Below are positions 37,505 to 61,343 of a stretch of DNA of 64,000 nucleotides, one piece after another. Each line of letters opens with the position of its first letter. Position 1 is the first letter of the stretch. The notes under the pieces were generated by a model that was not told where the DNA came from, did no database searches, and saw nothing but the letters and a program-made list of their open reading frames with translations. The stretch spans positions 32,001 to 96,000 of the IMG/VR virus record IMGVR_UViG_3300036770_005816, one strand, 5' to 3'. Source of the DNA: a virus. The position numbers were made by a program, and so were the translations under genes.

Positions 37505-37581
37505 TTCGTATTTCCTCTCTCACCCTCACGGGTGGCTAGTAGTTGTGTATCAGTATTACGCACCGAAGTCATGAAGTGTGA
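37505..37581 (-). promoter_or_regulatory. Phage promoter + CTACTAG-hairpin leader (representative minus-strand copy)
   Basis: Reverse strand reads GTCACAC-N12-GTGCGTAATA...ACTACTAG-CCACCC-GTGA-GGGTG-AGAGAGG...ATG. Confidence 0.75.
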
Positions 37582-37825
37582 CGCTCAGCAGTAGTCGCCG
37601 TCAGGCGGACAGCACTCGTGGCACTCAACCGACGCACCCTCAGGAATCGTGTTGGGGTCGAAGTTCACCCCCAACCAAGATTCGGCGATGTCGCAGAAGA
37701 TTTCGCAGTCGTCGTGAGAAACCTCACGCCCGCAAGAGTTACAAGTAAGCATTTCGTATCACCTCTCCCACCCGTTACGGGTGTCTAGTAGTTGCCGACT
37801 ACCTTAGGGAAAGGGTGTTACGGGG

Positions 37826-38599
37826 TTACTCGTAGTCAGCGTGAGAATCCAAGAACGAAAGCAACCGCTCAGCCGTCGTGTCACCGTCATACGCAGGCGC
37901 AGAACGCAACCACCTGATGAAGTCGTACCACTTGCGTTGTTGCTCAGCAGACTCAAAGACAAGCGTGTACTGAACCACCGCCTTGGAGTTCGCACCACCA
38001 ACCACCGTGCCACTCCCCTGAACCACCGCCCTCGCAGTATCAGTCGAAGCAGGCGCAACCACCCCCGACCCCTCAGCAGTCTCAACCACAGTCAGAGGCG
38101 CAACGGGACTAGCGGACTCGACAACGGGATTCGGATTCACAATCACGGGCGGAGTGTAGGTCGTGTCATCATCCGACACATAATCATCTTCCATCGAAGC
38201 GAACTCGAACTCATCCCATCCGAGCGACTCGAACAAATCCGCATAATCATCAGCAGTCGTAATCATCTCGAACAGAAGGTTGCTATCCACCGTGCCAAGT
38301 TCAGTAGTACGGTTATCAGCAAGAGCGAAAGCGACAGCACGGGAATCGTCGCCATCGAACTCGACGCACGCAACTTCCGACCAACCAAGCCGACGGCACG
38401 CCTCGACCTGATGATTACCCGCAAGCACCGTGTAAGTCCCGTCACCGTTGCCACGCACCACGACGGGTTTCACTTGACCGAACTCCTTGTACGACGCCAT
38501 AATCGCATCGACATTTCCTTTACGGGGGTTGCCGTCGAGAGGAATCAACTTCTCAATCGGCATCGCCAAGTTCTTTATCGACTCGTGGATGTTGCTCAT
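37826..38599 (-). CDS. ParB/Srx-like N-terminal domain protein
   Basis: NPRKG...FGQVKPVVV...LAGNHQVEA...ALADNR. Confidence 0.8.
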   Translation of the reverse strand: MSNIHESIKNLAMPIEKLIPLDGNPRKGNVDAIMASYKEFGQVKPVVVRGNGDGTYTVLAGNHQVEACRRLGWSEVACVEFDGDDSRAVAFALADNRTTELGTVDSNLLFEMITTADDYADLFESLGWDEFEFASMEDDYVSDDDTTYTPPVIVNPNPVVESASPVAPLTVVETAEGSGVVAPASTDTARAVVQGSGTVVGGANSKAVVQYTLVFESAEQQRKWYDFIRWLRSAPAYDGDTTAERLLSFLDSHADYE

Positions 38600-38955
38600 T
38601 GGTTCACCTGAACTCTCACATTTGCGTTTAGTGTTCGCAACGAATCCAACGCCGACCTCACGGACAGCAACTTCTCCCGTTTCGCTTTCACCAACGCCTC
38701 AGCAATCTTGTATCCGTACACCTCGTCGGACAGTTTGTAGTCAGCCCACGCTTCCCGCTCTTTTATAGACCCCTTCGCAGACAGATACTCTTTCGCCCAA
38801 TTTGCTTTCATCAACGCTTCTTTCTTGGCGCAGTCCACACTCAGCGTTTCGAACGCTTCGGTTTCCTCCTCCATTTGCGCCATCAAACGCATCATTTCAC
38901 GCTCGATGTCCACCTGTGAAATCGGTTGTGTTCTCGTCACGACAGTCCCGTCCAA
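38596..38955 (-). CDS. Hypothetical coiled-coil protein
   Basis: LDSLRTLNANVR C-terminus; coupled to RuvC-like gene. Confidence 0.6.
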   Translation of the reverse strand: MDGTVVTRTQPISQVDIEREMMRLMAQMEEETEAFETLSVDCAKKEALMKANWAKEYLSAKGSIKEREAWADYKLSDEVYGYKIAEALVKAKREKLLSVRSALDSLRTLNANVRVQVNQ

Positions 38956-39446
38956 TCAACTTTCTCCAACGCCGATAACTGTTGGGCAGACCAAGCGTAT
39001 TCACTCGAACCGAGTTTCGCAATAAGCATCTGTTCGAGAATCCAAGCGTCACAACGGTCATCGCCATCTCCGCCACCCCACACAATGCCCGTCATCGCCG
39101 AGATAGCCGACACAACTTCGGACTTTCCCGCATTTCCTTTCCCTGTTGCGAACTTCGCACGGCAAGTCGGGGGGATTTCGATGTACGGGATTCCCCTCTC
39201 GAACAAGGCGACCCTGACAACTCCGCCGAGTTCGCCAATCGAGTGCGCCTGAGAGTTGCGGGACATGTAAGAGTAGCCCTCCACTCCGACGACCTGTATG
39301 CGTTGCCCTTCACAGATGTTCATCACCCTGTCTCTGATTTCGACGAGACGCTCAGCACCACGGGTGGTTGGGCGGATACTTTCCGTGTTCCCGTTGTAGG
39401 AAACGCCCGTCGAAGTGAGCGACAAGTCGAGTCCGAGCGTGTTCAC
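38937..39446 (-). CDS. RuvC-like Holliday junction resolvase
   Basis: LGLDLSLTSTG, VGVEG, KFATGKGNAGK, DDRCDA. Confidence 0.85.
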   Translation of the reverse strand: MNTLGLDLSLTSTGVSYNGNTESIRPTTRGAERLVEIRDRVMNICEGQRIQVVGVEGYSYMSRNSQAHSIGELGGVVRVALFERGIPYIEIPPTCRAKFATGKGNAGKSEVVSAISAMTGIVWGGGDGDDRCDAWILEQMLIAKLGSSEYAWSAQQLSALEKVDWTGLS

Positions 39447-39462
39447 GAGGCAAACAATACAA

Positions 39463-39503
39463 CAAAAAAGCGCGTGCCACCCGAAACCGAGTGGACACGC
39501 GCC
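39463..39503 (-). terminator. Rho-independent terminator
   Basis: GCGCGTG..CAC..GTG..CACGCGC stem with AAAAAA on plus strand (U-tract on minus). Confidence 0.6.
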
Positions 39504-39524
39504 TTATTGTGCGTGACAGCAGAT

Positions 39525-39905
39525 TTAGAGGTTCTTGCCTCTGTAAGCAATGGCGACAGTGAAACCCGTGCCTGCCGTGCCTGAGCCAACCTGGTCTACG
39601 TCAACGGTGATGACATCACCAGCAGCGAACGACTTGACTGCCGCTGCGCCGGCGGTTGCCGAGACAGCAGCCGCGGCAACGGTGGGGCGGTTCGCCTGCG
39701 TTGTGAAAATGGTAGTCCCGTTCTTGTTGACATCGAAAATCGCTGACGACCCTGCGGGTGCGCTGAGCACCGACACGGTTACACCGACGATGTGACCTGC
39801 GACGGGCATGCGAACCCGCGCCTTACCTGTGCCTGTGGACAGGACTTCTTCGCTTGACAGTGTGACGATTCCCGCCAACTGCTTTCCGTTTCTCCATGTG
39901 CTCAT
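39525..39905 (-). CDS. Probable virion beta-sandwich (decoration-like) protein
   Basis: G/A/T/V-rich, FDVNKNGTTIFT...AGDVITVDVDQVGS. Confidence 0.55.
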   Translation of the reverse strand: MSTWRNGKQLAGIVTLSSEEVLSTGTGKARVRMPVAGHIVGVTVSVLSAPAGSSAIFDVNKNGTTIFTTQANRPTVAAAAVSATAGAAAVKSFAAGDVITVDVDQVGSGTAGTGFTVAIAYRGKNL

Positions 39906-39972
39906 TGCTTTTCTCCCCCGCACGCCTCAGCGCACGAACTAATGGTTTATGTTACCTAACAGAATACCACAA

Positions 39973-40353
39973 TCAGCGTTCCCAACTTCTTTTTGCGAGA
40001 CCCAACTCGAACGCTAACTGCGGGTTTTCCCCGATTCGCCGATGGCACGGGCGACAGACCGCAATACAATTCGTCTCATCTGTGATGCTTCCGCCTTGTG
40101 AGCGTCGTACCAACTCGTGGATGTCCCGCGAAGGTCGTTTGACGAAGACTGCTTTCCCGTCGTAGCCCGCGAAGATTTGGCACGCTTCGCACCACGGGCG
40201 TTCTTTGAGGAGGCGGGCGACGAGCGGTTTCCTTTCTTCGTCATACACCTTCTGCCGTTTCTTTGACCGTTTGTTGAGCGGGGTGCGTTTGAGCGGTTTC
40301 CCGCGTTTCACCCTCTGAGCCTTTGCCCGCATTTCAGACAAAACTCTGACCAC
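39973..40353 (-). CDS. HNH endonuclease
   Basis: CEAC...DIHE...RSQGG...NCIAVCRPCH. Confidence 0.8.
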   Translation of the reverse strand: MVRVLSEMRAKAQRVKRGKPLKRTPLNKRSKKRQKVYDEERKPLVARLLKERPWCEACQIFAGYDGKAVFVKRPSRDIHELVRRSQGGSITDETNCIAVCRPCHRRIGENPQLAFELGLAKRSWER

Positions 40354-40634
40354 GGGTACGATTTCCTGTGGGAGAGCGGATGTTGGCAGTTCACCAACTC
40401 GTTTGCTTTCCCGACTGCGACTTCACGAACGAACTCCGACATCGATTTCCCTTCGTGTTCGGCAGCCTTCTTGATGAGTTCGTGGTCTTCTTTGCTTGCT
40501 CGAATCAAGATTTGGCTTTGCGCGGGTTCGCCTTCTTGTGTTCGCGGGACTTTCTTGCGAGACGGGGTGAGCGTTTCGGCGACTTTGCTCATCGCTTGTT
40601 CGAGGTTGCTTGGTTCTTTGTTCTCGTCATTCAT
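40308..40634 (-). CDS. Ribbon-helix-helix protein (DUF1778-like) with C-terminal Zn motif
   Basis: QILIRASKEDHELIKKAAEHEGKSMSEFVR; CQH...CLKC. Confidence 0.65.
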   Translation of the reverse strand: MNDENKEPSNLEQAMSKVAETLTPSRKKVPRTQEGEPAQSQILIRASKEDHELIKKAAEHEGKSMSEFVREVAVGKANELVNCQHPLSHRKSYPWSEFCLKCGQRLRG

Positions 40635-41056
40635 TGTTTGTCGCCTTTCGCCAAATACTCTTCTGCTTTTTGGACTGAATCTTTCAGGTTTTCCGACCAT
40701 TGATGGTTGAGTTTGCTTGCCCACGGGGTGTGGAACCATTGCGGGAACTTCCCTGCGGCAGCCAGGTCCGATGAGAGTGGGTCGCGTTTGTTGAGTTCTT
40801 CGCTTGCTTGGATGGCGCGAGTAATCCATTCTTGCTGTTCTTTGACCCACGCGTTTGCTTGGTCTAGTTCTGCTTCTGTTGGGGAGTCGTCTAGTCCCGC
40901 CGATGCGAGGATGGATTGGATGATGTTGTCGGGTGGCAGGAAGTCTTTGAGTTCGGGGTCTTCGAAGTCGAGTGTTGCGTCGCTTGTGGTGGCTATCACC
41001 AATTCCCTGATTTCTTGGGGGAGTTGGTTGGCGACTATTTGTGCGGTGATTTTCAC
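40631..41056 (-). CDS. Hypothetical protein
   Basis: 141 aa ORF, ATGA overlap. Confidence 0.55.
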   Translation of the reverse strand: MKITAQIVANQLPQEIRELVIATTSDATLDFEDPELKDFLPPDNIIQSILASAGLDDSPTEAELDQANAWVKEQQEWITRAIQASEELNKRDPLSSDLAAAGKFPQWFHTPWASKLNHQWSENLKDSVQKAEEYLAKGDKQ

Positions 41057-41174
41057 GAGACTAGATTAGTTGAGAGTTTGCTATCGCGATGCGACAGGTT
41101 GTGTTAGGTGAGCCTTACATGGTGACTTTTGTCCCCTTGACAAACCCCTTGTCACCTATTATGATGGTAGTTAG

Positions 41175-43082: not shown

Positions 43083-43167
43083 TTCGGTTCCTCCTAGTGT
43101 GATGTAGTCCCGCCTATCGGAACTAACGAGGCAACACTAGCAGGGAACCAGCACACACGCAACTAGG

Positions 43168-43449: not shown

Positions 43450-43452
43450 GTT

Positions 43453-45074: not shown

Positions 45075-45148
45075 TTGACAACCGTACTACAACCGTGCGT
45101 AGTATGGGTAGTACCTACTAGCCCCTTCGGGGAGAAAGGAGAAAAACC
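45075..45148 (+). promoter_or_regulatory. Promoter + CTACTAG-hairpin leader
   Basis: TTGACA...GTGCGTAGTAT...CTACTAG-CCCC-TTCG-GGG-AGAAAGGAG. Confidence 0.75.
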
Positions 45149-45346
45149 GTGGCTAACGGCACCGTAGACCGTGGCAGGCTCGTCCTGTCGCGCGAGCAAT
45201 GGGCGGAAATCCATGCGCTGAGGTATGACGCTCGCGCGTACTACTTCCGTCGCGTGCGTCTCGACGGCTGGTCGCACGACGACGCGATGAACTCCATCGC
45301 GCGCATCGAGCGGAACGAGCGTGGCACCATCAACCTGATGTGGTGA
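45149..45346 (+). CDS. Small hypothetical protein
   Basis: Own promoter/leader and downstream bidirectional hairpin (45358-45402). Confidence 0.6.
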   Translation: MANGTVDRGRLVLSREQWAEIHALRYDARAYYFRRVRLDGWSHDDAMNSIARIERNERGTINLMW

Positions 45347-48527: not shown

Positions 48528-48752
48528 TCATTTCTCCTGAACCTTGCCCTTCGTGGTGTCGAACACTTCGTCGATAAGGTTTTTCCAAACCTCGAACTGA
48601 TTGTTTTCGTAGTCGCCCGTGATTGCCTGCTCGTATGTAATCTTTCCGAGAAGGTTCATCGGTATGCCGAGCACGAGTGCGTCGGTCGCCGAGTAGACGA
48701 TGTTGTCTAGATAGTCCTTCTTGGTGTCGTCTGATTCTGTTGATGTACTCAT
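48528..48752 (-). CDS. Small hypothetical protein
   Basis: Preceded by CTACTAG-GAAAGG leader. Confidence 0.55.
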   Translation of the reverse strand: MSTSTESDDTKKDYLDNIVYSATDALVLGIPMNLLGKITYEQAITGDYENNQFEVWKNLIDEVFDTTKGKVQEK

Positions 48753-48802
48753 TGGGTTCCCTTTCCTAGTAGTTGGTTATTACACAATACATAACATACT
48801 AC

Positions 48803-49513
48803 TCAGGGGTGTAACACGGAAACAACCTGCTTCCGTTCTTTTCTCCGATGATTGAGATTCTGAACCACAACACCGCAACCGAGTTCCCGCCACGAGCGAT
48901 ACCAACCCCGTTTCGTTTTGTAACTCAGATTCGTCGGGTCGGAGAAGTATGCGAGCACACCCCAATCAAACTCCGAGACACGCAGTTCATGACCCTGTGT
49001 GTAATACGACAACGCCCGACTCCGCAAAGAGTCCCGCTCCTGAGACATACCGAAATCCGACAAAGGGAACAATTTCAAGTCCGACATCGGGACTATCAGA
49101 TTTGACGGAACATGTATGTTTTTTGCGGGTCGTGCGAACTGCTCGGAAGTCAAGTCCAAGATGAAGTTGTCGGTCTCCACAAGAAGGTGTCCGCTCCAAC
49201 CGCCGAAGTCTTGGGAGAAACGGGTAACCGCCACATTCCAAGCATCATCGGGAAGGTCGTTCGCGTTCGTTCCGAACATTTCGAACCCTTTGGTGTTGAA
49301 AGAAATTGCGCCGACGGGTCGAAGTCGGTGCGGAACTTTTTGGTTTTCAAGGATTCTGCGTGCGAAGTTGCCCGCAAGAACACAAGAGTTACCCCCGTTC
49401 CCGAGAGTCCCGATGCGTCCCGCCTCGATGTCTCGCCAACCGTCAACGATTGCGTCGAGAATGAACTTCTCTTCGTCGATGGTTATTTGTTTATTTGGTT
49501 TTATCGTTTTCAT
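48803..49513 (-). CDS. Hypothetical protein with C...H...D triad pattern (possible papain/transglutaminase-like)
   Basis: NSCVLA...WSGHLLV...ILDLTSEQF. Confidence 0.45.
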   Translation of the reverse strand: MKTIKPNKQITIDEEKFILDAIVDGWRDIEAGRIGTLGNGGNSCVLAGNFARRILENQKVPHRLRPVGAISFNTKGFEMFGTNANDLPDDAWNVAVTRFSQDFGGWSGHLLVETDNFILDLTSEQFARPAKNIHVPSNLIVPMSDLKLFPLSDFGMSQERDSLRSRALSYYTQGHELRVSEFDWGVLAYFSDPTNLSYKTKRGWYRSWRELGCGVVVQNLNHRRKERKQVVSVLHP

Positions 49514-50020: not shown

Positions 50021-50180
50021 CCGGGCGGGGAGCCGCCCTTGTGCGGGTCGGGCTGTGCCTGAATCACGGGTTTCGTGATGTGATGGCGGTTCGCTACCCA
50101 TCGCACACTTCGTAACACCCCGTGCGTAATCTCGGTATCACCTACTAGCCCACCTTCGGGTGGAGAAAGCGAGATACCCA

Positions 50181-50669
50181 ATGTCCACCGCCACCCTTCC
50201 ACCGCTCACGCGCACCGAGCGCGTTGTTGCGTGGCTCCGCGATAACGCGGGCGACAACAACTTCCTGCGTTCCGTTCTTGCGAATTACGACCGTTGGGGT
50301 CGTCTGTCCGACAAGCAACTTGACGCGGTTGAGCGCAACATGAACCGACCCGCGCGCGTTGCGAACCCGAACCCCGTCACCGAAGTCGGCATGTACCGCG
50401 ATGACGCGGGTGTCGTGTTTCGCGTGAAGTTGTCCAAGCAGGGCAGGCTGTACGCGATGCGTTTCGTTCCCGAAGCGCAGGTCAAGTCCGAGCGTTTCGT
50501 CTACGCGGGTGGTGCGGTTCGCGCACTTCGCGCGGATAACCGCATGAGCGTCGCGCAGGCGCAGGCACTTGGCGTTCAGTTCGGCATCTGCTGTGTCTGT
50601 GGCGCGGAACTCACCGCGAGCGAGTCCGTCGCTAACGGCATCGGACCGGTGTGCGCTAAGCGCGTCTGA
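50181..50669 (+). CDS. DUF6011-like Zn-finger protein
   Basis: GRLSDKQ...CCVCGAELTASESVANGIGPVCA; own promoter/leader at 50103-50180 and terminator at ~50683-50732. Confidence 0.75.
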   Translation: MSTATLPPLTRTERVVAWLRDNAGDNNFLRSVLANYDRWGRLSDKQLDAVERNMNRPARVANPNPVTEVGMYRDDAGVVFRVKLSKQGRLYAMRFVPEAQVKSERFVYAGGAVRALRADNRMSVAQAQALGVQFGICCVCGAELTASESVANGIGPVCAKRV

Positions 50670-51390: not shown

Positions 51391-52215
51391 AATTGTTTCC
51401 TTTGTTCGGTTGATGTGATGTGTATTCGTTTCCGGAGTCCGTTCTCCGTCTAATAATCTGATAACAAGTATACCTGTTGGGGGTTTTCGGGGTCAATAAG
51501 CAGCGCACGTGCAGCGCAGCAGCCAGATTTTTGATTTTTTTTCGCTTTTTGGGAGGTCCTGCGGGAGGTCCTGTTGGGCTGCCCGCGTCGCCTGCTGTCT
51601 AGTCCCGCAAATGGCTTGGTTGTTGGGTTTGGTGGGCGGGACTGTGGTGTGGTGGGGTGGGGGTTGGGTCGGGTTGTTATCGGGTCGGGTGGTGGTTGGG
51701 GAGAAGAACACTTCGGTTTTTTGGTGTGACGCGGTTCACATCAGGTTTCAGGTGCGAATAACCCCGCCCGTGTCGGTTCGGGCGGGGGTTCGGTCGGCTA
51801 CGGGTTCAGGGTGTCGCGTGGTGCGCGCACCACCAACACACTATGTCGTCGTGGCGGTCACTCCAAGTAGGCAGATAGTTGTCATGCCTCTCCGTCATTA
51901 CATCATCACAGATAGGACACTCGCGTCCTTCGTGCTCGTTGCTCATAGGTTATTTCCCCCCTTTCATCATGAAGTAGTTCGCTACCACTATGACCACGCC
52001 GTAGGTGACTAAGAATGTCGCTACATAGTTCACGGGTCATTCACCGCGCTCGGGTAGTGGTTGTATGTCCCATTTCGTGCAGTGTCCGTCGTAGCACGCT
52101 TCGCATACGACAGTGCCGTCGTACTCGTAGTCGCTTCCGTCGGGGAGTATCCCGATAGGTGCTAGCCACCACTTGTCCGTGACGGTTTCGCAGTACTCGC
52201 AGGTTCGTTCATCGT

Positions 52216-52545
52216 TCATCGCGCGCACCTCACATACTTCTCGCGGATAGCGATACTGTCGTGGTGACGCGCACGCGACGGTCGGTGTGTCTTTCTCTGC
52301 CATTGACGCTGAGTCATCGTGAGATACGCGAGACGGTGCTCACGCTTGGCACGGTAGATAGCGCGGAACATCTCCGAGTATCCTCGCGCCTTCGCGTCAC
52401 GCAACGCCATGACGGTTTTTGTGTCCTCTACGGGTACGCGGTATCCGCTCACCATTTCGTTGTAGATAGCCCACATAATTTTGTCGGTTTCCGTGCCTTC
52501 TTTGAGAAGGTTCGGCATACCCGATTGGGTTTCATACTTGCTCAT
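52216..52545 (-). CDS. Hypothetical protein
   Basis: Full promoter + CTACTAG-hairpin leader at 52546-52622. Confidence 0.65.
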   Translation of the reverse strand: MSKYETQSGMPNLLKEGTETDKIMWAIYNEMVSGYRVPVEDTKTVMALRDAKARGYSEMFRAIYRAKREHRLAYLTMTQRQWQRKTHRPSRARHHDSIAIREKYVRCAR

Positions 52546-52623
52546 TTCGGTATTCCTTTCCCCGCCCTTCGGCGGTCTAGTAGTTGCTGATTACATTACG
52601 CACGAATCGTCGTGAAGTGTGAT

Positions 52624-53025
52624 TCACCGCGACGGGTAGAACGGAATCTGCCCCAAGTAGAACCCGTTGTCGTCGTACTGAGATGAGAGAAACGCTCGGT
52701 GCTCGTTTTCTATCTTGCGTCGCTCGTCGTCCGCGCGAAGGTCATCTAGCCACATTTTGAGACCTTCACCGCTCGCGCCGTATTCCATTTCGCCGTAGAA
52801 CGGGTTCGGGTAGCCGACGATGTTGCCGACCCACTTGTCCGCGTCACGCGCCGATGTTTCTCCGCTGAATACGCGCTCGGTTGCCCAACCGTTATTTTCA
52901 CCGCCCGATACCGCGATGCGGATTCGGATTAGGTACGGGTTCACGGGTGCGCGCCATACGCTCACTTCGTATCCGAGTGAGAGTGCCTGCGATTTCTTTT
53001 CCCAAGTGATTCCTAAGAGACTCAT
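52624..53025 (-). CDS. Hypothetical protein
   Basis: CTACTAG-CCC-TTCG-GGG-GAAAGG leader places start at 53025. Confidence 0.65.
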   Translation of the reverse strand: MSLLGITWEKKSQALSLGYEVSVWRAPVNPYLIRIRIAVSGGENNGWATERVFSGETSARDADKWVGNIVGYPNPFYGEMEYGASGEGLKMWLDDLRADDERRKIENEHRAFLSSQYDDNGFYLGQIPFYPSR

Positions 53026-53246
53026 TCTGATTCCTTTCCCCCGAAGGGCTAGTAGTTGATTCCTACCCCCCACAATAACAAGGGGGTGTAATACGGTTAT
53101 CAGCGTATCGGGTCAGAACGGGTATCACGCGACAGGGGGTGTAACACGGTTTCACGACCACGCGATTTCGGATTCCCACTTTTTCGCAACGCCTTCACCC
53201 GCCCGCAAGAGACACGCGAACCGAAACCGCACGCAGGACACGGGCG

Positions 53247-53405: not shown

Positions 53406-53601
53406 CGGGGGAATCTTGACTCGTGCTGTCGGGTTTCGTGTGGCGGGTGAACGCTGAGAGTGTTCGTTCGGCTACTTGCTCGTACTCGTACCCTTAGTGT
53501 CACGAGTCACATCGCAGAATGTCACTACCGTACTACACCCGTGCGTAGTATGTATGTCATCAACTACTAGCCCGACGAGAGTCGGAGAAACGAGATACGA
53601 A

Positions 53602-54078
53602 ATGAGCAAGAAGAAGAAGGGCAAGGGCAAGAAGCGCGAGAAGAAGCCACTACGCGAATGGACTCAGAAAGACCATTTCCCTATCCAAGTGAACGGCAAG
53701 AAGTTTCGTTGGGACATCATCAACGACATCATCAACGAGCGAGTCGCTATCACCGTCTCGCCGATTCCACCGAACATTCGTGATTGGAAATGCGAAGATT
53801 GCGGAGCACCCAAGCGGTACATCACCGAGCGCGAAACACCGAGCGACCACGACGACTACAAGATTATCGGGTGCGTGTTCTGCTACAAGTTCATCACTAT
53901 CTATCTGAACGAGCGCAAGCACGGCAACACACCTATCCGTCCTGACCAAGTAGCGAAAGGAATCACGCGATACTACACACCGTGTTGCGGAGTCGAGATA
54001 AACCTGAGTCACAAGACGATTGAGCAAGTACGCGAAGCGTGTCGGCAAGATTGTAAGACGAGAAAGGTGGTGAAGTGA
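53602..54078 (+). CDS. Cys-rich hypothetical protein
   Basis: CEDC, CVFC, PCCG, CRQDC; promoter/leader at 53521-53601. Confidence 0.65.
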   Translation: MSKKKKGKGKKREKKPLREWTQKDHFPIQVNGKKFRWDIINDIINERVAITVSPIPPNIRDWKCEDCGAPKRYITERETPSDHDDYKIIGCVFCYKFITIYLNERKHGNTPIRPDQVAKGITRYYTPCCGVEINLSHKTIEQVREACRQDCKTRKVVK

Positions 54079-54300
54079 TGAAACGGAGAGAATGGAACGA
54101 CGCTGATAGGCAAGCGTTCGCAGACGGAGCGCGTACACGAGCGCAGACCCACGCGAACAAGAAGCGCGCGCGCAACAAGCGCGAGTGTCGGGAATACCGT
54201 TGGCGCGGAGCGGAGTAATCCGCGAAACGCCATAACACCCACACCGTAAAGTGTGGATTACACAACTAGCCCGACGCGAGTCGGAGAAAGAGATGAAGTA

Positions 54301-54588
54301 ATGAGCAACTATCCGAATGACCGAGAGCGTCCAACAATCGTGTTGGACAAGCGGTACGACGCGCGCACGAAATGGGTGACGCGCGAGTATGGCGAGTTCG
54401 TCGGCAAGACAATCAAGGAAATCCGACCGATGCGTAAATCCGAATCCGAAGCGTTCGGGTGGGATTACGAGAGCGAAGATGCGTTCGCAATCGTGTTCAC
54501 GGACGGAAGCGTTCTAATCCCGTCGCAAGACCCCGAAGGAAACGGAGCGGGTTGGCTATTCGTCGCAGATGCGGTGGTAGCGAAATGA
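54301..54588 (+). CDS. Hypothetical protein
   Basis: Leader hairpin at 54265-54290; PSQDPEGNGAG motif. Confidence 0.65.
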   Translation: MSNYPNDRERPTIVLDKRYDARTKWVTREYGEFVGKTIKEIRPMRKSESEAFGWDYESEDAFAIVFTDGSVLIPSQDPEGNGAGWLFVADAVVAK

Positions 54589-54800: not shown

Positions 54801-54879
54801 GCGTCACGCTCACGCCTACATCGTGCGTAATACAAGCACAACACCAACACCGACGAGAGTCGGAGAAAGAGATAAAGAA

Positions 54880-55119
54880 ATGTTCACCATACCCAACACC
54901 GAGGATTTCCACCTAGAAGTAATGGAGCGTCGTGCGCGACTCGTCGGCAAGCGCGTCCGTTTGGATTACACGAGCGACCCATACACGAAACTCGTGCGCG
55001 GTGACGAAGGCATCGTGCGAAGCATAGATGTATTCGGCACGGTACACATCGCGTGGGACAACGGAAGCACACTCGGACTCATCGAGGACGCGGGCGACTC
55101 GTTCACAATCATCGGGTGA
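54880..55119 (+). CDS. DUF4314-like protein
   Basis: GKRVRL...DPY...GDEGIV..ID.FGTVHIAWDNGSTLGLI. Confidence 0.75.
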   Translation: MFTIPNTEDFHLEVMERRARLVGKRVRLDYTSDPYTKLVRGDEGIVRSIDVFGTVHIAWDNGSTLGLIEDAGDSFTIIG

Positions 55120-55170
55120 AATCCCGATGCCACTACCAACACCGACAAGCGTCGGAGAAAGAGAAACGAA

Positions 55171-55353
55171 ATGAGCAAGACCGAAACGAAAGCACCGAGA
55201 AAGAATGTCATCTTCGTAGGCGACTATTTCGTCACCGTGTTCACGGTGGAAGCGAGCGACGACGACACCGCGATAGCGCAAGCGGAGCAGATGTTCGCAG
55301 ACGAGTTCGGGAGCGACATCGGCTACAACGAGGTGACAGTAGAAGAAGCGTGA
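55171..55353 (+). CDS. Small acidic protein, paralog of 54585..54800
   Basis: Leader hairpin upstream; shared FVGxYFV motif. Confidence 0.6.
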   Translation: MSKTETKAPRKNVIFVGDYFVTVFTVEASDDDTAIAQAEQMFADEFGSDIGYNEVTVEEA

Positions 55354-55577
55354 TGTCACATCACGCCTACATCGTGCGTATCCATAGCACGACATCAACC
55401 ACGACAGAAAGGTAAATGAAATGAACGAACCAATCGGCAAGTGTCAAGAATGTGACCGCGAGTTTCATCTTCTCGACGAGGACGAAGCGAACGAGTATTG
55501 GTACGGACACGATTGCGAAGCGTCCTGACGAAATAGACAGAATGGAGCGAACCGAAAGGTTCGTTCTATTCGCGTCT

Positions 55578-55712: not shown

Positions 55713-55770
55713 CCGTGCGCAGCGCGATGCGGGCGCACCCGTTAGGGATACGCCCGCAAGTGTCGCGGTG

Positions 55771-56094
55771 TCAGTTCGCTGACTTATCCACGAAGTATTC
55801 GGGGTAATGGTTCTCGACCTGCCCGTCGCTATCGGGGTTAGCGACTTCGTACGCGTTCAGGTAAAGAGTGCCGTCCTTGACACCTTCGCCTTCGTTGCCG
55901 TCGCTGTCTACCGTGTGGTAGGTCTCTTCGCGAAGGTCTACGACGATTACTTCGTCGTGTACGCGGTTGCCGTCTGCGTCCTTCTTCGCGATAGCGATGA
56001 CGACCATCGCGCCTTCGCGCACCGCGCCTTCGTCGATGACTGCGCGGACTACGGTCTTACCGCACTCCATTTCCTTGATGCTTGTGACTGTCAT
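55771..56094 (-). CDS. Hypothetical protein
   Basis: Own promoter/leader at 56095-56166. Confidence 0.65.
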   Translation of the reverse strand: MTVTSIKEMECGKTVVRAVIDEGAVREGAMVVIAIAKKDADGNRVHDEVIVVDLREETYHTVDSDGNEGEGVKDGTLYLNAYEVANPDSDGQVENHYPEYFVDKSAN

Positions 56095-56210
56095 TTCGGT
56101 ATTCCCTTCTCCCCGTGTGGGGGTTGTTGTTGTTGTTAGTTACGCACGATGTGTTCGGTGGTGTGATGTGACGGGTGCGCGCCCCACCTTGACGCGCACC
56201 CGTCGTTAGT

Positions 56211-56513
56211 TCACTTGTTGTTCGGTCGTCTGCCGATAGCACCGCGCACTTCGCGCACCTTCGGGGTGCTCGGTGTGTTGAGCAACCACTCGCCTGCCGT
56301 TCGGTACGCGTTCAGGTATCCGCCGTCCACGATGCCACTCGTGAGTCGGATTAGTCCGTTGACATACTCCGCTTCGGTGACATCTAGGTCTTCGAACTCG
56401 ACGCTACCGCTCAGGTAGTCACTCCACGCGTTGACGATGATGTCACGCCCGTAAAGTTCTCCGATGCCGATGTAGTTGTCTGCGATGACTTCATCTAGTG
56501 AGAAGTCTCTCAT
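56211..56513 (-). CDS. Hypothetical protein
   Basis: Own promoter/leader at 56514-56584 fixes start at 56513. Confidence 0.65.
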   Translation of the reverse strand: MRDFSLDEVIADNYIGIGELYGRDIIVNAWSDYLSGSVEFEDLDVTEAEYVNGLIRLTSGIVDGGYLNAYRTAGEWLLNTPSTPKVREVRGAIGRRPNNK

Positions 56514-56601
56514 GTGTTGTCTCCTTCTCCCCGTTCGGGGTGTTGTTGTTGATAGTGATACGCACGGAACACCATCAAGTGTGATGCTCCGTGCGCGTGG
56601 T

Positions 56602-56982
56602 TCACTTGCTTGCGTGTTGCTCGGTGAGCGCGTGCCACCTTGCGTACCGCTCGTCTGAGTTGAGTAGCGCGAGCGTCTCCGCTTCGTATGCGAGCAACGC
56701 CTTCGGGGAGTATCGCGCGACCTGACGGGTCGGGAGATACTCGTACACCGCTTCTTCGCCGAATAGCGCGAACTCGGTGACTTCGTAGCCACCGCCGTCG
56801 CGATAGACGGACTCACGAAGAACCGCCATGAATCGCTTGCGGTCTGCGTCGTGGTGAATGTCGAGCGTCACCTGCTTGCGGTTGCCGTCCGCGTCGGGTT
56901 GCGCTTCGGGGTTGCGCCAACGGTAGACGACTTCGCGCTTGCCAAGTCGCTCCCTTCGCTCCGAGCCGATGATGATAGTCAT
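56602..56982 (-). CDS. Hypothetical protein
   Basis: Own promoter/leader at 56983-57058. Confidence 0.65.
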   Translation of the reverse strand: MTIIIGSERRERLGKREVVYRWRNPEAQPDADGNRKQVTLDIHHDADRKRFMAVLRESVYRDGGGYEVTEFALFGEEAVYEYLPTRQVARYSPKALLAYEAETLALLNSDERYARWHALTEQHASK

Positions 56983-57082
56983 TTCTTATTCCCTTCTCCG
57001 ACTTGTGTCGGGCTAGTAGTTGGTTATTACATTACGCACGGGGTGTAGCAGGGTGTGACATCGCACCCTGCCCACCTTCGGT

Positions 57083-57400
57083 TCATTCGTGCCACGCTCC
57101 GCACTCAGGACAACCGCCGACCGCGTACGGGTTGTCGCACTCGTAGCACGCTTGCGCTCCGCGTTCGTCGTCCGAATCTTCGTCGGATTCGTCACCGAGT
57201 CCGTCGACATTCACCCATGCGAGCACGGTGCGAAGTAGGTTGTCGTAATCTCCGCTTGTCGCTTCTGCCCTGAACGCATCGACTTCGGATTCGCTGATTC
57301 CTGCGCGACTCATCGCACGGGTGACGCGACCGAGAATCGAGAACGCGTTGCCGTCTTCGCCAACGAGTTGCACATTCACTTCGGGATACTTCGGATTCAT
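57083..57400 (-). CDS. Conserved phage protein (LVGEDGNAF...SGDYDNLL family) with C-terminal CxxC/CxxC
   Basis: Motif recognition; own promoter/leader at 57401-57477. Confidence 0.7.
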   Translation of the reverse strand: MNPKYPEVNVQLVGEDGNAFSILGRVTRAMSRAGISESEVDAFRAEATSGDYDNLLRTVLAWVNVDGLGDESDEDSDDERGAQACYECDNPYAVGGCPECGAWHE

Positions 57401-57522
57401 TACCTATCTCCTTCTCCGACTGTCGTCGGTTCTAGTAGTTGATACACATAGTACGCACGGGGTGTTACATAGTGTGACATCGCGTGTGATGCGACCTGCG
57501 TCACATTGGGTACACGGGTGCT

Positions 57523-57592
57523 CGACCGAGCGACCGACCGACCGAGCGGGCGACCGAGCGGGCGACCGACCGAGCGACCGACCGAGCGAGCA
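57523..57592. repeat. Low-complexity GACC/GAGC/GGGC 4-mer tandem repeat
   Basis: cgaccgagcgaccgaccgaccgagcgggcgaccgagcgggcgaccgaccgagcgaccgaccgagcgagc. Confidence 0.8.
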
Positions 57593-57617
57593 GACGCACG
57601 CGCGCGCACGCGCGGGG

Positions 57618-57710
57618 AGTCCCGCGATGGTTTCGCGGGCGCGGGACTGTGCGTGTGGGGCGCACCCAAAGATGTGAGAGATGAACAAGTTTCCCGACGG
57701 TGGCGGAAAG
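57618..57710 (+). repeat. Boundary element copy
   Basis: AGTCCCGC 57618, GCGGGACTGT 57641, 15-mer 57696. Confidence 0.8.
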
Positions 57711-57921
57711 CCGGTAGCCGGCGCAGCGTGATGTTCGGAAAGTTTGATTTCTGTGTGACCCCGATGTACACACGGCGTGTACTCAGATGTGACGACTGTC
57801 TCTTGACTTGCCGTGTCTATTACCCTATTATGTAAGTAGCAGGTGAGACAACCATGTCACACCCCGCTCGTATTGTGCGTAATAGAAGTATCAACCACCG
57901 AGCCACTACTAGGAGAAACAA

Positions 57922-58341
57922 ATGGATACAACCGAAACAAACAACGAAGTCGCAGAAGCGACACGCATCTTGGCGGAAGCGATTAGCGAGTACGGCAGAC
58001 CCGTCTACATCGTCAAAGTTCCTTCCCGTATTCAGCATCTCGTTCCGTTGGCAGTACGCAAAGAACTTCTCGCTAACTCCAAACTCAGCGAAGGTTGGGT
58101 ACGCGACAACGACGGTTGCTACTACAAAGGTCGACCCGACAACAAGAGCATTATTCTCGCATGGGCGAAAGAGAACCTTTACCAACAAGTCACAACGAAA
58201 GACATCGCAGAAGCGACAGGCGTACCGATACACACCGTACGCACGGTCGTTGGCGACCGACCTGACATCTTCCGCGAGAGCGACGGGTGGACATACGAAG
58301 TCCGCGACCCGCAGGCAGACCGAAAGGCGGAGAAGAAATGA
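57922..58341 (+). CDS. HTH-containing hypothetical protein
   Basis: VTTKDIAEATGVPIHTVRTV; promoter at 57857-57885. Confidence 0.65.
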   Translation: MDTTETNNEVAEATRILAEAISEYGRPVYIVKVPSRIQHLVPLAVRKELLANSKLSEGWVRDNDGCYYKGRPDNKSIILAWAKENLYQQVTTKDIAEATGVPIHTVRTVVGDRPDIFRESDGWTYEVRDPQADRKAEKK

Positions 58342-58572
58342 GCAACACCAAACACGCTTGGGAGTTGGATTATGTCCACTCCGTATTTCAGGAGTTAGAA
58401 GCGCAAGGGGTAGCACTACCGATAGGTGACTACGGCATCGTCTACCGATACATAGAGGACGCTCGCGAAGTGTTCCTATCGGAAGAAGACACCGCGTCAC
58501 ACCCCTGAGTTATCGTGCGTAGTAATAACAACACCTACTAGCCCGACCGAGAGGTCGGAGAAAGAGCAAATA

Positions 58573-58872
58573 ATGAACAGCATAGACAAATGGGAACAAG
58601 CGTTCCTGTTCTACAACTTGGAGGACAACACTTGGGTCGCGTACGAAACGCTACCCCCGAACCACTCGCTCACCGCAGGTGAGGAGGAGAACACCCATGC
58701 GTTCGTGGACATCTCCCATTGGACACAAGCAGACCTTGACGAGTTTGACAAGTCCGAGGAGTTGGAACGACTCACGATTATTGAGTCGTTGGAGTTCACC
58801 GAGTTCAGCAAGCAGATGCGTGAGCATGGCTCAGGCGCAGGCATCGTGTTCGGTATGGGGGGTAGCAAGTGA
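58573..58872 (+). CDS. Hypothetical protein
   Basis: Promoter/leader at 58497-58572. Confidence 0.65.
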   Translation: MNSIDKWEQAFLFYNLEDNTWVAYETLPPNHSLTAGEEENTHAFVDISHWTQADLDEFDKSEELERLTIIESLEFTEFSKQMREHGSGAGIVFGMGGSK

Positions 58873-59324
58873 TTACCACCCAATACCACCTTCCCATTGA
58901 GGACGACAACAAGAAACCGATGCGCGACTCGGCGTTCTTCGTCGGCGACTACGGACACGAACTCGTGGCAACCGTGACCGACAAGACGCAAGACAGAACT
59001 ATCTCCGTCTACTGCGACGGCGAGATGCGTATCCACTTGTGGGAAACGAAAGAGGCGCGCGACCGAGGTGACGACCCCGAAGTCATCAGGTATGTGGACA
59101 GGCTGTTGGAAGCAGGTCTCACGAACGACGAACTTCTCGCGAAAGCGAACGAGGAGGAGCGTTTGGAGTGGGTGAACAACACTTGGTTCGACCTGTACGC
59201 AGACGCACCAAACGACCCTGAGCAGGGTTGGCTCAACGCTGTACACCACGACATCGTGGAAGCAGTAGAGCAGGCTCAGGCACTTATCAACGACGAAGAA
59301 ACATGGAAGGAACTCAACAAATGA
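58869..59324 (+). CDS. Hypothetical protein
   Basis: Coupled to upstream ORF. Confidence 0.6.
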   Translation: MITTQYHLPIEDDNKKPMRDSAFFVGDYGHELVATVTDKTQDRTISVYCDGEMRIHLWETKEARDRGDDPEVIRYVDRLLEAGLTNDELLAKANEEERLEWVNNTWFDLYADAPNDPEQGWLNAVHHDIVEAVEQAQALINDEETWKELNK

Positions 59325-59593
59325 AGATTTCAGACATCGTAGAACACCTGCAAGAGAAGTATTCACCGAACGAGGAAATCGTCATCGCATGGTGGGACAG
59401 AGACCTGTTCCCCAAGTATGACCCCGACAAGGACGACGACATACCGCTCACAAAGAAGGAGTGGACTCGCGCGTTGGAACTCATGGCGCGTGATTCGTCG
59501 GCGTGGTCAGACAACATCTCGGAGAAGATGTACGACTTCATCAAGTACTACACGGAGAAAGCAACAGAACAACTAGCAGAGGAGAACAAGTAA
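59321..59593 (+). CDS. Hypothetical protein
   Basis: ATGA overlap. Confidence 0.55.
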   Translation: MKISDIVEHLQEKYSPNEEIVIAWWDRDLFPKYDPDKDDDIPLTKKEWTRALELMARDSSAWSDNISEKMYDFIKYYTEKATEQLAEENK

Positions 59594-59832
59594 TGAGTAA
59601 TCAACATCAGCACACCGAGCACTACTTCGTGGTGGTCGGCATCGCAGACGAGGAAGGCAACATCTCGTTTCGCATAGACGGCGATACGGCGCAGGCTCGT
59701 TTCCCCGAAGGTTGTATTTGGACGGGAGACGAGTGGATTTCCGCTACACCAAGCGAGGAGTGGCTGTTGGAACGCGACAACGCGATTATCAAGGCTCTCG
59801 ACGACAAGTTCGACAAAGAGGTGAAGGTATGA
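59593..59832 (+). CDS. Hypothetical protein
   Basis: TAATG overlap, GAGGAG RBS. Confidence 0.55.
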   Translation: MSNQHQHTEHYFVVVGIADEEGNISFRIDGDTAQARFPEGCIWTGDEWISATPSEEWLLERDNAIIKALDDKFDKEVKV

Positions 59833-60176
59833 CCAAGAAGAAAGAAACACGCAAAGAACTCGACCCCGTGTTTGACGCGCGAGGAAACCGTGTGTGCGCT
59901 ATGGAAGGTTGCGTCACACGACTCTCCAAATACAACGACCATGTTGTGTGTCGCGCTCACACCGTTGAGTATGCGATAAACTATTTACCGATAGAGGAAC
60001 CTGTATGACCGAGCAAAGCAAGGCAACAGAACTTGTGGACAACGCTTTGAGAGAAATCTCAGGGCGCGACTTGGTATCCGCTAAGGAGATGACCGACCTG
60101 CTGTTGGACATCAGGCTGTACCTGATGAGCGAGGGCGAGAAAGCAAGCACGACACTAACCGAGTAAGGTGTAGGGC

Positions 60177-60374
60177 GTGAAAGTGACCTGTACCCTGTGT
60201 GGGGACGAACTAGACACCGCGACTATGGCGACCGTAGTGAAGGTCGTCGGGTGGGTTGAGTGGAAAGGCGACCGCGTTGTCGGCTCAGTCAAGAACCCTT
60301 CTGCCCCCGTCGGCTACGCACACAAGATGTGTGTCGACTCTCCACAGTCCCGAGACCAAATCACCCTGTTCTGA
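60177..60374 (+). CDS. Small Zn-binding hypothetical protein
   Basis: CTLC...HKMC. Confidence 0.5.
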   Translation: MKVTCTLCGDELDTATMATVVKVVGWVEWKGDRVVGSVKNPSAPVGYAHKMCVDSPQSRDQITLF

Positions 60375-60380
60375 CTTGTG

Positions 60381-60501
60381 AGTCCCGCGTTTCGCGCGCG
60401 GTAGCGGGGCTGTTGTGTGTGTGCTTGTGGTGCGGGACTTCTCGCGGGCGGGCGCGCCTGCGCGTGCGCGTGTGTGCGTGTTTCGTGACGGTGGCGGAAA
60501 G
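60381..60501 (+). repeat. Boundary element copy
   Basis: AGTCCCGC 60381, GCGGGACT 60432, 15-mer 60487. Confidence 0.8.
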
Positions 60502-60700
60502 CGAGCGCAGGTCGGGTTTGTTGGTGCGTTTGTTACCGTTCGGTAACTTACCGCTCGGTAACTTCGGTGTGACGAGCGTCTCTTGACTTCTCATCACACT
60601 TGCCGTATTATTGTGCGTAGTAATAGTGCCACCGAGTGGTGGGGACAGAAACGGGAAACCGTGTAACACCCCTTCCCTAATGTGGATAGCAAGAAGGACA

Positions 60701-60776
60701 TCACACGAACGAAAGTTCGTGCGTAATAGAGATACAAACTACTAGCCGACGAAAGTCGGGAAAGGCAAGAAACAAA
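60701..60776 (+). promoter_or_regulatory. Promoter with embedded LexA-type box + CTACTAG-hairpin leader
   Basis: TCACAC-GAACGAAAGTTC-GTGCGTAATA...CTACTAG-CCGAC-GAAA-GTCGG-GAAAGG. Confidence 0.75.
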
Positions 60777-61181
60777 ATGAAGCACAACATCACGGCTCTC
60801 ACGAGCGACTATCTCGCAAAGCGCGAGGCGGTGGAGACCGCAGAGAAGGCTCTCGCGCAAGCGGAGGCTCTCTTGAAGCAATCGTTCGCACAGAACGGTG
60901 TGGACTTCAACATCGTGAACGGCAAGAAAGTGTCGCTCATCAAGTCAATCCGAAACACTTACAGCGTGGAAGCGTTGAAGGGTCTCGTGTCCGACAAACT
61001 ATTCAAGAAGGTCACGAAGGTCACGGTTGACGGAACGAAGTTCAAGTCGGCGGTCGCTCTCGGAGACATCAAGCACGATGTCGCAGGCGCGGTCACGACC
61101 GAGACCGAGGTCGAGGCAATCCGCGTGTACGAAGTGGACGCGCAAGGCGCGGAAGTCAAGAAGGCGCGAAAGGTTGCGTGA
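60777..61181 (+). CDS. Hypothetical protein (possible Gam/host-nuclease-inhibitor-like coiled coil)
   Basis: N-terminal helix, KVTKVTVDGTKFKSAV pattern. Confidence 0.5.
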   Translation: MKHNITALTSDYLAKREAVETAEKALAQAEALLKQSFAQNGVDFNIVNGKKVSLIKSIRNTYSVEALKGLVSDKLFKKVTKVTVDGTKFKSAVALGDIKHDVAGAVTTETEVEAIRVYEVDAQGAEVKKARKVA

Positions 61182-61260
61182 ACTAGGCACGGTGTGGGGG
61201 GTCAATCCCCCCACGAAACCGTGTAACACCCCTGCCGTAAGGTGGTGGTCAGAAAGCAAG

Positions 61261-61343
61261 ACACACGAACGAAAGTTCGTGCGTAGTAATACCAACACAA
61301 ACTACTAGCCCGACAAAAGTCGGAGAAAGAAAAAGAGATAACA
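61261..61343 (+). promoter_or_regulatory. Promoter with embedded LexA-type box + CTACTAG-hairpin leader
   Basis: ACACAC-GAACGAAAGTTC-GTGCGTAGTAAT...CTACTAG-CCCGAC-AAAA-GTCGG-AGAAAG. Confidence 0.75.

Follow-up and report, generated by a model that had tools for sequence, protein, structure and literature searches.

The window analysed here comprises 64,000 nucleotides, bases 32001-96000 of the 133,214-bp IMG/VR virus record IMGVR_UViG_3300036770_005816, and our subject is a repeated intergenic cassette within it, made up of a putative promoter and a 5' untranslated region (5' UTR) with a short hairpin, which precedes small genes between 37.5 and 61.4 kb. We refer to this phage record as G000, to two completely retrieved relatives as G001 and G002, and to related loci by L-numbers. 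The last cassette stands before a MoxR-like AAA gene that forms a widely conserved pair with the 510-amino-acid (aa) gene downstream of it (window 61344-63613). The AAA protein has 1597 metagenome homologs at E <= 1e-40, and the 510-aa protein gave no match to a Pfam family or to a cultured-phage protein. No cultured relative was retrieved from the phage collection, either by megablast with 12 kb or by tblastn with the 510-aa protein. Because the helicase shares 35% identity with Arthrobacter phage helicases and two WhiB-family genes are present (window 28010-28204, minus strand, 59.5 bits; genome 103518-103709, minus strand, 57.3 bits), we infer an actinobacterial host. Large parts of the stretch are contained in DNA runs whose labels read subsurface, marine, lagoon or freshwater. 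A tRNA scan of the window returned none.

We identified 21 cassettes, 20 of them directly before an open reading frame (ORF), including one uncertain ORF of 33 aa (Table 1). A preceding sequence-only reading had proposed about 20 genes with one shared layout, and the number agrees well. From 5' to 3', the parts are a promoter-like motif, an A/C-rich stretch, the word (A)CTACTAG, a hairpin, a purine block and the start codon, and all gene-proximal copies point at the gene behind them. The proposed layout is therefore real and gene-directed, but it is not uniform: four genes have the hairpin without CTACTAG (starts 54880, 55171, 56094 and 56513), two have CTACTAG without the hairpin (48752 and 57922), and the site at 55356 is a promoter alone, with neither CTAG nor hairpin. 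The first promoter-like motif, TCACAC-N12/13-GTGCGTA (type-1), occurs 10 times in its exact form in the window, against 0 expected (0/100 shuffles). GTGCGTA alone is found 25 times where 6.6 would be expected, and 16 of the 25 coincide with the 16 promoter-like sites listed earlier, every one of which is present, far above chance. Allowing at most one mismatch per box, we obtained 22 matches in the whole 133-kb record. Eighteen are intergenic and gene-directed, all at window 37.5-67.2 kb, and the other four look like chance matches in coding DNA; sites 45095 and 53541 fall outside this relaxed pattern because their upstream box has diverged. CTACTAG is likewise enriched, with 18 copies in the window against 1.4 expected, 14 of which lie at 37.5-61.4 kb.

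We next consider the hairpin, for which 17 loop-centred copies were picked by eye and aligned ungapped; an additional copy lies at 37769-37783. Its stems include CCGAC/GTCGG (9 copies), CCCC/GGGG (3) and CCACC/GGTGG (2), besides CCGACC/GGTCGG, CCGCC/GGCGG, CACCC/GGGTG and CCC/GGG. At the four inner positions of the stem, pairing holds in 100, 100, 100 and 88% of the 17 copies, and at two pairs both sides have changed in 8 of the 17 rows without a single unpaired case. The covariation score reached 0.461, compared with 0.105 +/- 0.036 in shuffles, none of 500 of which attained that value, and with at most 0.123 in controls with slid partners. The earlier observation that the stems differ yet keep pairing is thus borne out. 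Since the aligned hairpins had been picked by eye, we also scanned blindly for perfect stems of at least 4 bp ending 10-24 nt before a start codon. Such stems precede 17 of the 55 genes at window 37-62 kb and only 7 of the 140 elsewhere, with 1.8 expected after shuffling. Where the stem belongs to a cassette, 14-17 nt (once 20 nt) separate the end of its 3' arm from the start codon, and by-eye reading of the 17 aligned rows finds no gap between stem and purine run in any of them. The loops, already described as often GNRA or UUCG, are GNRA in six copies and UUCG in three, that is 9/17 against 0.6 expected (P = 1.4e-9), while their complements are not special loops. This enrichment argues for selection on the sense-strand RNA. 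Together, these comparisons show a hairpin that appears to act as RNA, with its structure under selection and its position tied to the start codon and not to the promoter.

We ruled out that the leader hairpin is a terminator: on neither strand does a U-run follow it, and AGAAAG and the start codon come next. With predicted stabilities of -6 to -10 kcal/mol and GNRA or UUCG loops, such G+C-rich hairpins in the 5' UTR of many short transcripts might instead be stabilisers that guard short mRNAs from 5'-end-dependent RNases. Stabilisers of the ompA type, however, protect only when the stem lies within a few nt of the 5' end. If transcription starts about 7 nt after the -10 element, as we assume, some 12-20 unpaired nt would precede the hairpin here, and the fixed distance is to the start codon rather than to the promoter. 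Because the stem is not near the presumed 5' end, mRNA protection, one of the functions suggested before, is weakened, and we regard it as quite improbable.

A search of window 36000-64000 on both strands against Rfam gave 0 matches at E <= 1. Within the window, a covariance model built from the 17 rows found no copy below E = 0.1 other than its own training rows, and the left-out copy at 37769-37783 scored E = 0.4. In 1.28 Mb of relatives the same model was more productive: 34 of 39 matches fall in the closest group, L080-L084 (82-83% AAA identity), at about 10 per 16 kb, where cassettes have the form ..CAA-CTAG-hairpin-AGAAAGCAAGG..ATG. Upstream of the AAA ortholog, the stems of different relatives are paired though different in sequence (CCGAC/GTCGG, CCGAAC/GTTCGG, CCCACT/AGTGGG, CCGAA/TTCGG, and CCCGAC/GTTGGG with one G.U). 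These matches at orthologous genes and in L080-L084 rule out a hairpin unique to G000. Between G000 and L081, the stem before the gene starting at 52545 has changed from CCGCC/GGCGG to CCCC/GGGG, a loop at another gene from GCGA to GAGA and thus still to GNRA, and the hairpin has been gained or lost at orthologous genes. Across the clade, we collected 50 distinct leaders of the CTAG-hairpin-purine-start form, 40 of them perfect, with 13 different stems.

Table 1 Cassettes and related sites at window 37.5-61.4 kb (window coordinates; strand in brackets); promoters are predicted.
Span	Gene or ORF behind	Promoter-like part	Leader word	Hairpin
37505..37581 (-)	55-aa gene, 37337-37504	type-1, 37557-37581	CTACTAG, 37536-37542	37521-37534, CACCC/GGGTG, loop GTGA; purine SD
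37753..37818 (-)	55-aa gene, 37585-37752	box-type, 37801-37818, ACACCC..TAAGGT	CTACTAG, 37785-37791	37769-37783, CACCCG/CGGGTG, loop TAA
45089..45148 (+)	65-aa gene, 45149-45346	ACAACC-GTGCG-TAGTAT; TTGACA 19 nt upstream of TAGTAT	CTACTAG, 45115-45121	45122-45133, CCCC/GGGG, loop UUCG
48753..48812 (-)	74-aa gene, 48528-48752	box-type, 48796-48812	CTACTAG, 48766-48772, directly on SD	none
50103..50180 (+)	162-aa DUF6011 gene, 50181-50669	type-1 + ACACCCC box	CTACTAG, 50142-50148	50150-50163, CCACC/GGTGG, loop UUCG
52546..52622 (-)	109-aa gene, 52216-52545	type-1, 52597-52622	CTACTAG, 52577-52583	52562-52575, CCGCC/GGCGG
53026..53087 (-)	133-aa gene, 52624-53025	box-type, 53072-53087, within inverted repeat CCCCC..GGGGGG	CTACTAG, 53049-53055	short, 53039-53048, CCC/GGG, loop UUCG
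53535..53601 (+)	158-aa gene, 53602-54078	ACACCC-GTGCG-TAGTAT	CTACTAG, 53564-53570	53572-53585, CCGAC/GTCGG, loop GAGA
54235..54300 (+)	95-aa gene, 54301-54588	box-type, 54235-54252	AACTAG, 54263-54268	54271-54284, CCGAC/GTCGG, loop GCGA
54804..54879 (+)	79-aa ORF, 54880-55119	type-1, 54804-54829	no CTAG	54850-54863, loop GAGA
55123..55170 (+)	60-aa ORF, 55171-55353	none; only truly promoterless copy (leader)		55142-55155, CCGAC/GTCGG, loop AAGC; AGAAAG
55356..55426 (+)	33-aa ORF, uncertain	type-1, 55356-55380	plain leader, no CTAG	none
56095..56166 (-)	107-aa gene, 55771-56094	type-1, 56141-56166	(CAA)n leader	56111-56122, CCCC/GGGG
56514..56584 (-)	100-aa gene, 56211-56513	type-1, 56559-56584	(CAA)n leader	56529-56540, CCCC/GGGG
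56983..57058 (-)	126-aa gene, 56602-56982	type-1 + ACACCCC box	CTACTAG, 57013-57019	56998-57011, CCGAC/GTCGG
57401..57477 (-)	105-aa gene, 57083-57400	type-1 + ACACCCC box	CTACTAG, 57432-57438	57416-57429
57857..57921 (+)	139-aa weak-HTH gene, 57922-58341	type-1	CTACTAG, 57906-57912, directly on SD	none; L081 ortholog with hairpin
58497..58572 (+)	99-aa gene, 58573-58872	type-1	CTACTAG, 58535-58541	6 bp, 58543-58558, CCGACC/GGTCGG, loop GAGA
60583..60683 (+)	no own ORF (tandem upstream promoters)	canonical TTGACT-N17-TATTAT overlapping type-1, 60594-60619; after the hairpin, box-type, 60666-60683		60629-60642, CCACC/GGTGG
60701..60776 (+)	134-aa gene, 60777-61181	type-1 with palindromic spacer GAAC-GAAA-GTTC	CTACTAG, 60739-60745	60746-60759, loop GAAA
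61261..61343 (+)	MoxR-like AAA gene, 61344-62081	type-1	CTACTAG, 61302-61308	61310-61323; compensatory changes in relatives
HTH, helix-turn-helix; SD, Shine-Dalgarno sequence.

G000 also contains a second promoter-like class, T(T/A)ACACCC(C) followed after 4-7 nt by TAnnGT (box-type). Five leaders had been reported earlier as lacking a promoter. All five exist, but box-type motifs precede four of them (37785, 48766, 53049 and 54265), which leaves the one at 55135 as promoterless. In L051, L052/L078 and L065, which share 56-57% identity in the 510-aa marker, nearly every CTACTAG is preceded by TGA(C/T)ACACCC(C), a (T/C)AnnnT about 5 nt further on and then 8-11 nt, with AAAGGA and ATG coming immediately after the word. 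In an alignment of 113 box-type sites, AAC(C)nTGTnACACCC stands out as conserved columns about 5 nt upstream of the hexamer; the T/C-A-nnn-T pattern of the hexamer itself was set by the search and is no independent result. Most loci of at least 6 kb with a vWA-like marker identity of at least 55% carry 4-19 copies of the motif. Among the more distant loci most carry 0-1, with L106/L107 and L153-L155 as exceptions (4-6). The G000-type motif, CACA-N13-15-TGCGTA, is enriched in the closest lineages only, at 3-12 per locus compared with about 0.1 in shuffles. Across IMG/VR, the exact type-1 motif gave 16 single matches, which we take as chance level by a rough estimate that leaves the collection size unchecked. 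These relatives show the box-type promoter to be, as judged from its distribution, the older and clade-wide form. In several G000 promoters both boxes are present 10 bp apart, as in GTCACAC-TAT-GTAACACCCC-GTGCG-TACTAT.

The phage also has promoters of the canonical TTGACA type, located at 41.2 kb and at three further positions, 51467-51496 (-), 57803-57831 (+) and 60583-60611 (+), each of these three with 10/12 matches to the canonical sigma-70 type. A sigma-70 scan of 20 kb returned 6 sites where 8.1 were expected; overlap with a cassette is limited to the site at 60583-60611. The canonical promoter there overlaps a type-1 promoter, and the same layout recurs at window coordinate 64801. Given canonical promoters elsewhere in the phage and the TCACAC and ACACCC boxes in the cassettes, the cassette promoters form a separate class, plausibly a phage-specific one. 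The non-consensus -35 noted before is confirmed in that the upstream box does not fit the TTGACA used elsewhere. We infer that these elements are promoters from their position, polarity and -10-like element. Since the phage also carries canonical TTGACA-N17-TAnnnT promoters, the class is probably read by the host RNA polymerase together with a phage helper, for which a Mor-family HTH protein, small HTH proteins and the two WhiB proteins would be candidates. T4 middle promoters combine a MotA box with a sigma-70 -10 element, and the Mor- and C-dependent promoters of Mu likewise use a phage-specific box. The cassette promoters resemble both in having a normal-looking -10 and a phage-specific box in place of the -35, in a phage that encodes a Mor-family HTH protein, and differ from them in the sequence and position of the box.

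We searched for the corresponding proteins. No Sigma70_r2 match was found for sigma region 2, and for region 4 the Sigma70_r4_2 and TIGR02937 models gave weak HTH matches only (two for TIGR02937, at 15.6 and 13.6 bits). A PF00940 search for a single-subunit RNA polymerase was without match, but its control was silent too, so that this result is uninformative. Among HTH proteins, the Pfam scan returned the Mor and helicase-associated (HA) domains and weak HTH matches only. The Mor-family HTH (25.5 bits, cut-off 24.9) is the C-terminal part of a 233-aa protein with an HA domain, encoded past the window end at window 64078-64779 (-), conserved in most relatives and transcribed divergently from the promoter at 64812. 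This protein is a candidate, and no more than that, for the regulator of the cassette promoters.

We lean slightly towards the reading that the repeats are autonomous, portable promoter and 5'-UTR cassettes for early ORFans, in which the hairpin acts at translation initiation. Each cassette of about 60-80 bp would make a small, fast-evolving early gene its own unit of transcription and translation. At the DNA level, a TAnnnn -10 element behind GTGCG would be combined with one upstream box of the ACAC type or with two spaced by one helical turn, namely TCACAC around -35, ACACCC(C) at about -24 to -18, or both. The RNA would begin with a short A/C-rich leader carrying (CTA)CTAG, clade-conserved and placed at about +3 to +12, and continue with a G+C hairpin of 4-6 bp with an extra-stable tetraloop, whose 3' arm runs without a gap into AGAAAG(G). 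The latter is predicted to pair with the last bases of the 16S rRNA 3' end, and from such pairing it would follow that the hairpin insulates or presents the ribosome site. The hairpin might keep this site single-stranded whichever ORF lies behind it, and might also stack coaxially on the helix of SD and anti-SD, so that ORFans swapped in would be translated independently of their context. A further-reaching claim, that the gapless hairpin-AGAAAG junction is a new translation-initiation element with a stacked SD:anti-SD helix and, together with (CTA)CTAG, defines a clade-wide, phage-controlled post-transcriptional regulon of some 20 early genes, is possible but in our judgement rather unlikely. 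If true, it would amount to a plug-in 5' UTR with which any ORF that is captured becomes translatable, across a clade of uncultured aquatic actinophages.

The leader word itself invites other explanations. What stays invariant of it among the relatives is (A)ACTAG. CTACTAG has 132 distinct contexts in these relatives, of which 75 are leader-type, mostly 10-18 nt from the start codon, and the word is clade-wide also where the hairpin is absent; the papers listed by a literature search for CTACTAG contained only primers and unrelated texts. The word could be the site of an RNA-binding regulator. Early genes of T4 are shut off post-transcriptionally, by the translational repressor RegA and the endoribonuclease RegB, and with this precedent (CTA)CTAG and the hairpin could together be the operator of a RegA-like repressor or the target of a RegB-like endoribonuclease that shuts off or processes the early set. 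A conserved word and a predominant stem, CCGAC/GTCGG, placed right on the ribosome-binding region of about 20 mRNAs would suit such a role, as would the persistence of the word where no hairpin is found. Against it, stems as well as loops are free to vary, CTAG is missing from some cassettes and the hairpin from others, and no RegA- or RegB-like gene was found, although none was searched for; we consider this reading improbable. A box that is separated by 0-2 nt from a GNRA-looped stem of 5 bp, close to the promoter, also resembles the lambda nut site, in which the boxA word is followed by a boxB hairpin with a GNRA-like loop bound by N. CTACTAG would then be boxA and the hairpin boxB of an antitermination site loading a phage N-like factor. 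With GNRA in only 6 of the 17 loops, about 20 sites before single short genes instead of one or two per operon, a hairpin position tied to the start codon and no N-like protein identified (none was searched for), we think this most improbable.

We also examined how the cassettes relate to the genes that they precede. In a homology table of 16 cassette genes, which leaves out ORFs 53602, 54880 and 55171 because the gene caller missed them, no gene has a paralog in G000 and nine have no homolog in G001 or G002. Pfam families are limited to DUF6011, a weak DUF7376, AAA_5 and weak HTH matches, and most of the genes belong to none. Gene duplication as the origin of the repeats was ruled out, as the cassette genes have no paralogs. 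Between G000 and L081, gene order and orientation differ, and each gene still has its own cassette. The similarity among cassettes extends to the ATG, with ATAC(C)GAAATG in 6 copies, and the most alike cassettes are neighbours (60701/61261, 54804/55356 and 57033/57452, for example). DNA contigs that stem from two other studies have 110 different letters in place of 61245-61364 and pass over 60372-60657; the contigs, of runs X5, X7, X9 and X10, cover the stretch in pieces, and uncovered parts were not interpreted.

Such exchanges raise the alternative that the repeats work mainly as DNA, either as recombination patches or structure-specific sites, as in integrons and in the promoter-early stem-loop (PeSL) cassettes, which offer a precedent (PMC2839356), or as operators of a dimeric phage regulator. 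Cassettes that travel with their genes between G000 and L081, the likeness of neighbouring cassettes, the replaced and skipped segments in the contigs and the dyad symmetry of the promoter boxes would all accord with a DNA-level role. The enrichment of GNRA and UUCG loops and the strict sense-strand polarity point to RNA instead. Moreover, the breakpoints of a replacement at 58338-58920 are ordinary gene boundaries, L081 having no cassette there, and intergenic breakpoints are expected anyway. We therefore see little chance that this alternative holds. The recombination joints suggested by the sequence-only reading are compatible with the data, in that single genes have been moved or inverted with their cassette, but the one replacement that we examined did not break at the repeats.

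Several observations weigh against the portable-cassette reading that we favour. The commonest stem, CCGAC/GTCGG (9/17 here and 16/40 in the clade), is conserved in sequence, which fits protein recognition too. Many relatives have the orthologous AAA gene without the hairpin; because they translate it nonetheless, the hairpin is dispensable. Raw non-Watson-Crick pairs in the clade (n=10) comprise 3 G.T, 6 C.A or A.C and 1 T.C, and G.U is thus not favoured. On inspection, 2 of the G.T cases were true cassettes, both with G.U, and the 6 C.A or A.C cases resolved into 3 mis-registered cassette hairpins and 3 sequences that are not cassettes. Pairing of AGAAAG(G) was judged against an actinobacterial 16S rRNA 3' end which we take to read ...CCUCCUUUCU, not against one from a host genome. 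As to the promoters, the runs listed as holding the phage include no RNA run, and all transcription starts are predicted ones. The last position of the assumed -10 hexamer is T in only about 6 of 20 G000 sites, which makes the exact -10 register uncertain. A partial dyad symmetry is seen in either promoter type (CACAC..GTGCG, and ACACCC..GGGTGT around -10), and they could for that reason be operators. Promoters of extracytoplasmic function (ECF) sigma factors have AAC in the -35 motif and CGT in the -10, with some 16 nt as spacer, and are served by a cognate group-4 sigma factor. An ECF-like reading, GAAAC-N16-CGTAA, fits the geometry, yet no sigma region 2 was found; read by eye, 7 box-type sites in G000, 5 of them in the window, conform to (G)AAAC-N16-C(G/C)TAA.

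Comparable systems are in print. PeSL cassettes are described in the T4-type phages RB49/phi1, PST and nt-1 (PMC2839356, PMC4122927), and start-associated sequences (SAS) and their extended form (ESAS) in Cluster K mycobacteriophages and Cluster EF Microbacterium phages, together with start-linked repeats in clusters EC, EG and O (PMC3203893, PMC7302621). By analogy, PeSLs are the closest working analogue of the cassette, and SAS/ESAS the closest among actinophages. The motif had been called undescribed: it has no Rfam match and our literature search found no description of this cassette, but these four accounts show that repeats of its general kind were already published.

The cassette shares with the PeSL a composite intergenic repeat of less than 100 bp with promoter, stem-loop, SD and start codon, its clustering in a hyperplastic region whose small ORFans vary from one close relative to the next, and the organisation of each gene as a self-contained unit. 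One defining PeSL feature, a repeated intergenic element ending in SD and start codon among variable ORFans, is found here in the 21 cassettes at 37.5-61.4 kb, and as in PeSL subclasses some promoters carry an inverted repeat of a C-run and a G-run over the -10 or -35. The differences are equally clear. The phage group is unrelated and its presumed host actinobacterial; the upstream box is TCACAC or ACACCC, whereas PeSLs have a strong early promoter with sigma-70 consensus and hence TTGACA; the hairpin belongs to the 5' UTR, past the promoter, and is joined to the ribosome site, whereas that of the PeSL is a terminator of upstream transcription in or beside the promoter; and (CTA)CTAG is an extra conserved word. 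For PeSLs, recombination between cassettes and mini-circles are reported, while here only rearranged order and replaced stretches can be read from the sequence. Like SAS/ESAS, the elements are actinophage repeats at or just upstream of ribosome-binding sites, before 10-20 genes that belong to different families. They also have in common a partial complementarity to the 16S 3' end, a link with an inverted repeat further upstream and an unexplained function. Unlike the SAS, a fixed asymmetric 13-mer 3-8 bp from the start, AGAAAG(G) has 6-7 nt and ends about 10-12 nt from the ATG. Unlike the ESAS, with conserved imperfect inverted repeats of 17 bp, the stems here have 4-6 bp, 13 sequences in the clade, compensatory changes and tetraloops. 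The unit here also includes a predicted promoter, which SAS/ESAS do not. Because it has neither a promoter of sigma-70 consensus nor a fixed 13-mer at the ribosome-binding site, we place the cassette in neither PeSL nor SAS.

The cassettes provide a sequence-level map of early-gene wiring in a large, abundant and uncultured group of probably actinobacterial phages, and a compact natural promoter and 5'-UTR part with a defined hairpin/SD geometry. They would carry the PeSL idea of shuffled, self-contained ORFan cassettes from Gram-negative T4-type phages to actinophages. Should the stacking or insulator idea be true, the recurrence in actinophages of start-associated repeats, long known but unexplained (SAS/ESAS and the motifs of EC, EG and O), would be accounted for.

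Some further features of the region deserve mention. Upstream of 16 promoters, the 59-mers have a mean fold z of -1.56. A few of them fold strongly (z = -5.2, -3.4 and -2.9), and at other sites the stem is missing. The strongest, at about 56170-56205 (-), is an inverted repeat of 14 bp without mismatch, placed immediately before the 56141 promoter (-30.4 kcal/mol, z = -5.2), which by analogy with PeSLs could be the terminator of the upstream gene. A third repeat, GACGGTGG(C/A)GGAAAG, is present in 11 copies, all on the plus strand regardless of local gene direction, and occurs in L052 and L065 too. The four copies in the window (50006, 53391, 57696 and 60487) lie 60-160 nt upstream of plus-strand promoters, often within a TTTCC..GGAAA inverted repeat; beyond it, copies are found at 64741, 68494, 69160, 69400, 69607, 70076 and 70381, and those at 68-70 kb stand 3-8 nt before start codons in an SAS-like manner. 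Another stereotyped leader, ACACGGAGGTAATA(A/C)(A/G)A(A)-ATG, occurs without hairpin beyond the window at 65617, 65862 and 67206 (and 66585), behind type-1 or canonical promoters. The leader style changes at the AAA/vWA operon. Finally, the strand composition of window 34001-36000, which spans the genes at 34772-36054, is extreme, with a GC skew of -0.50, an AT skew of +0.51 and an A+C-rich plus strand.

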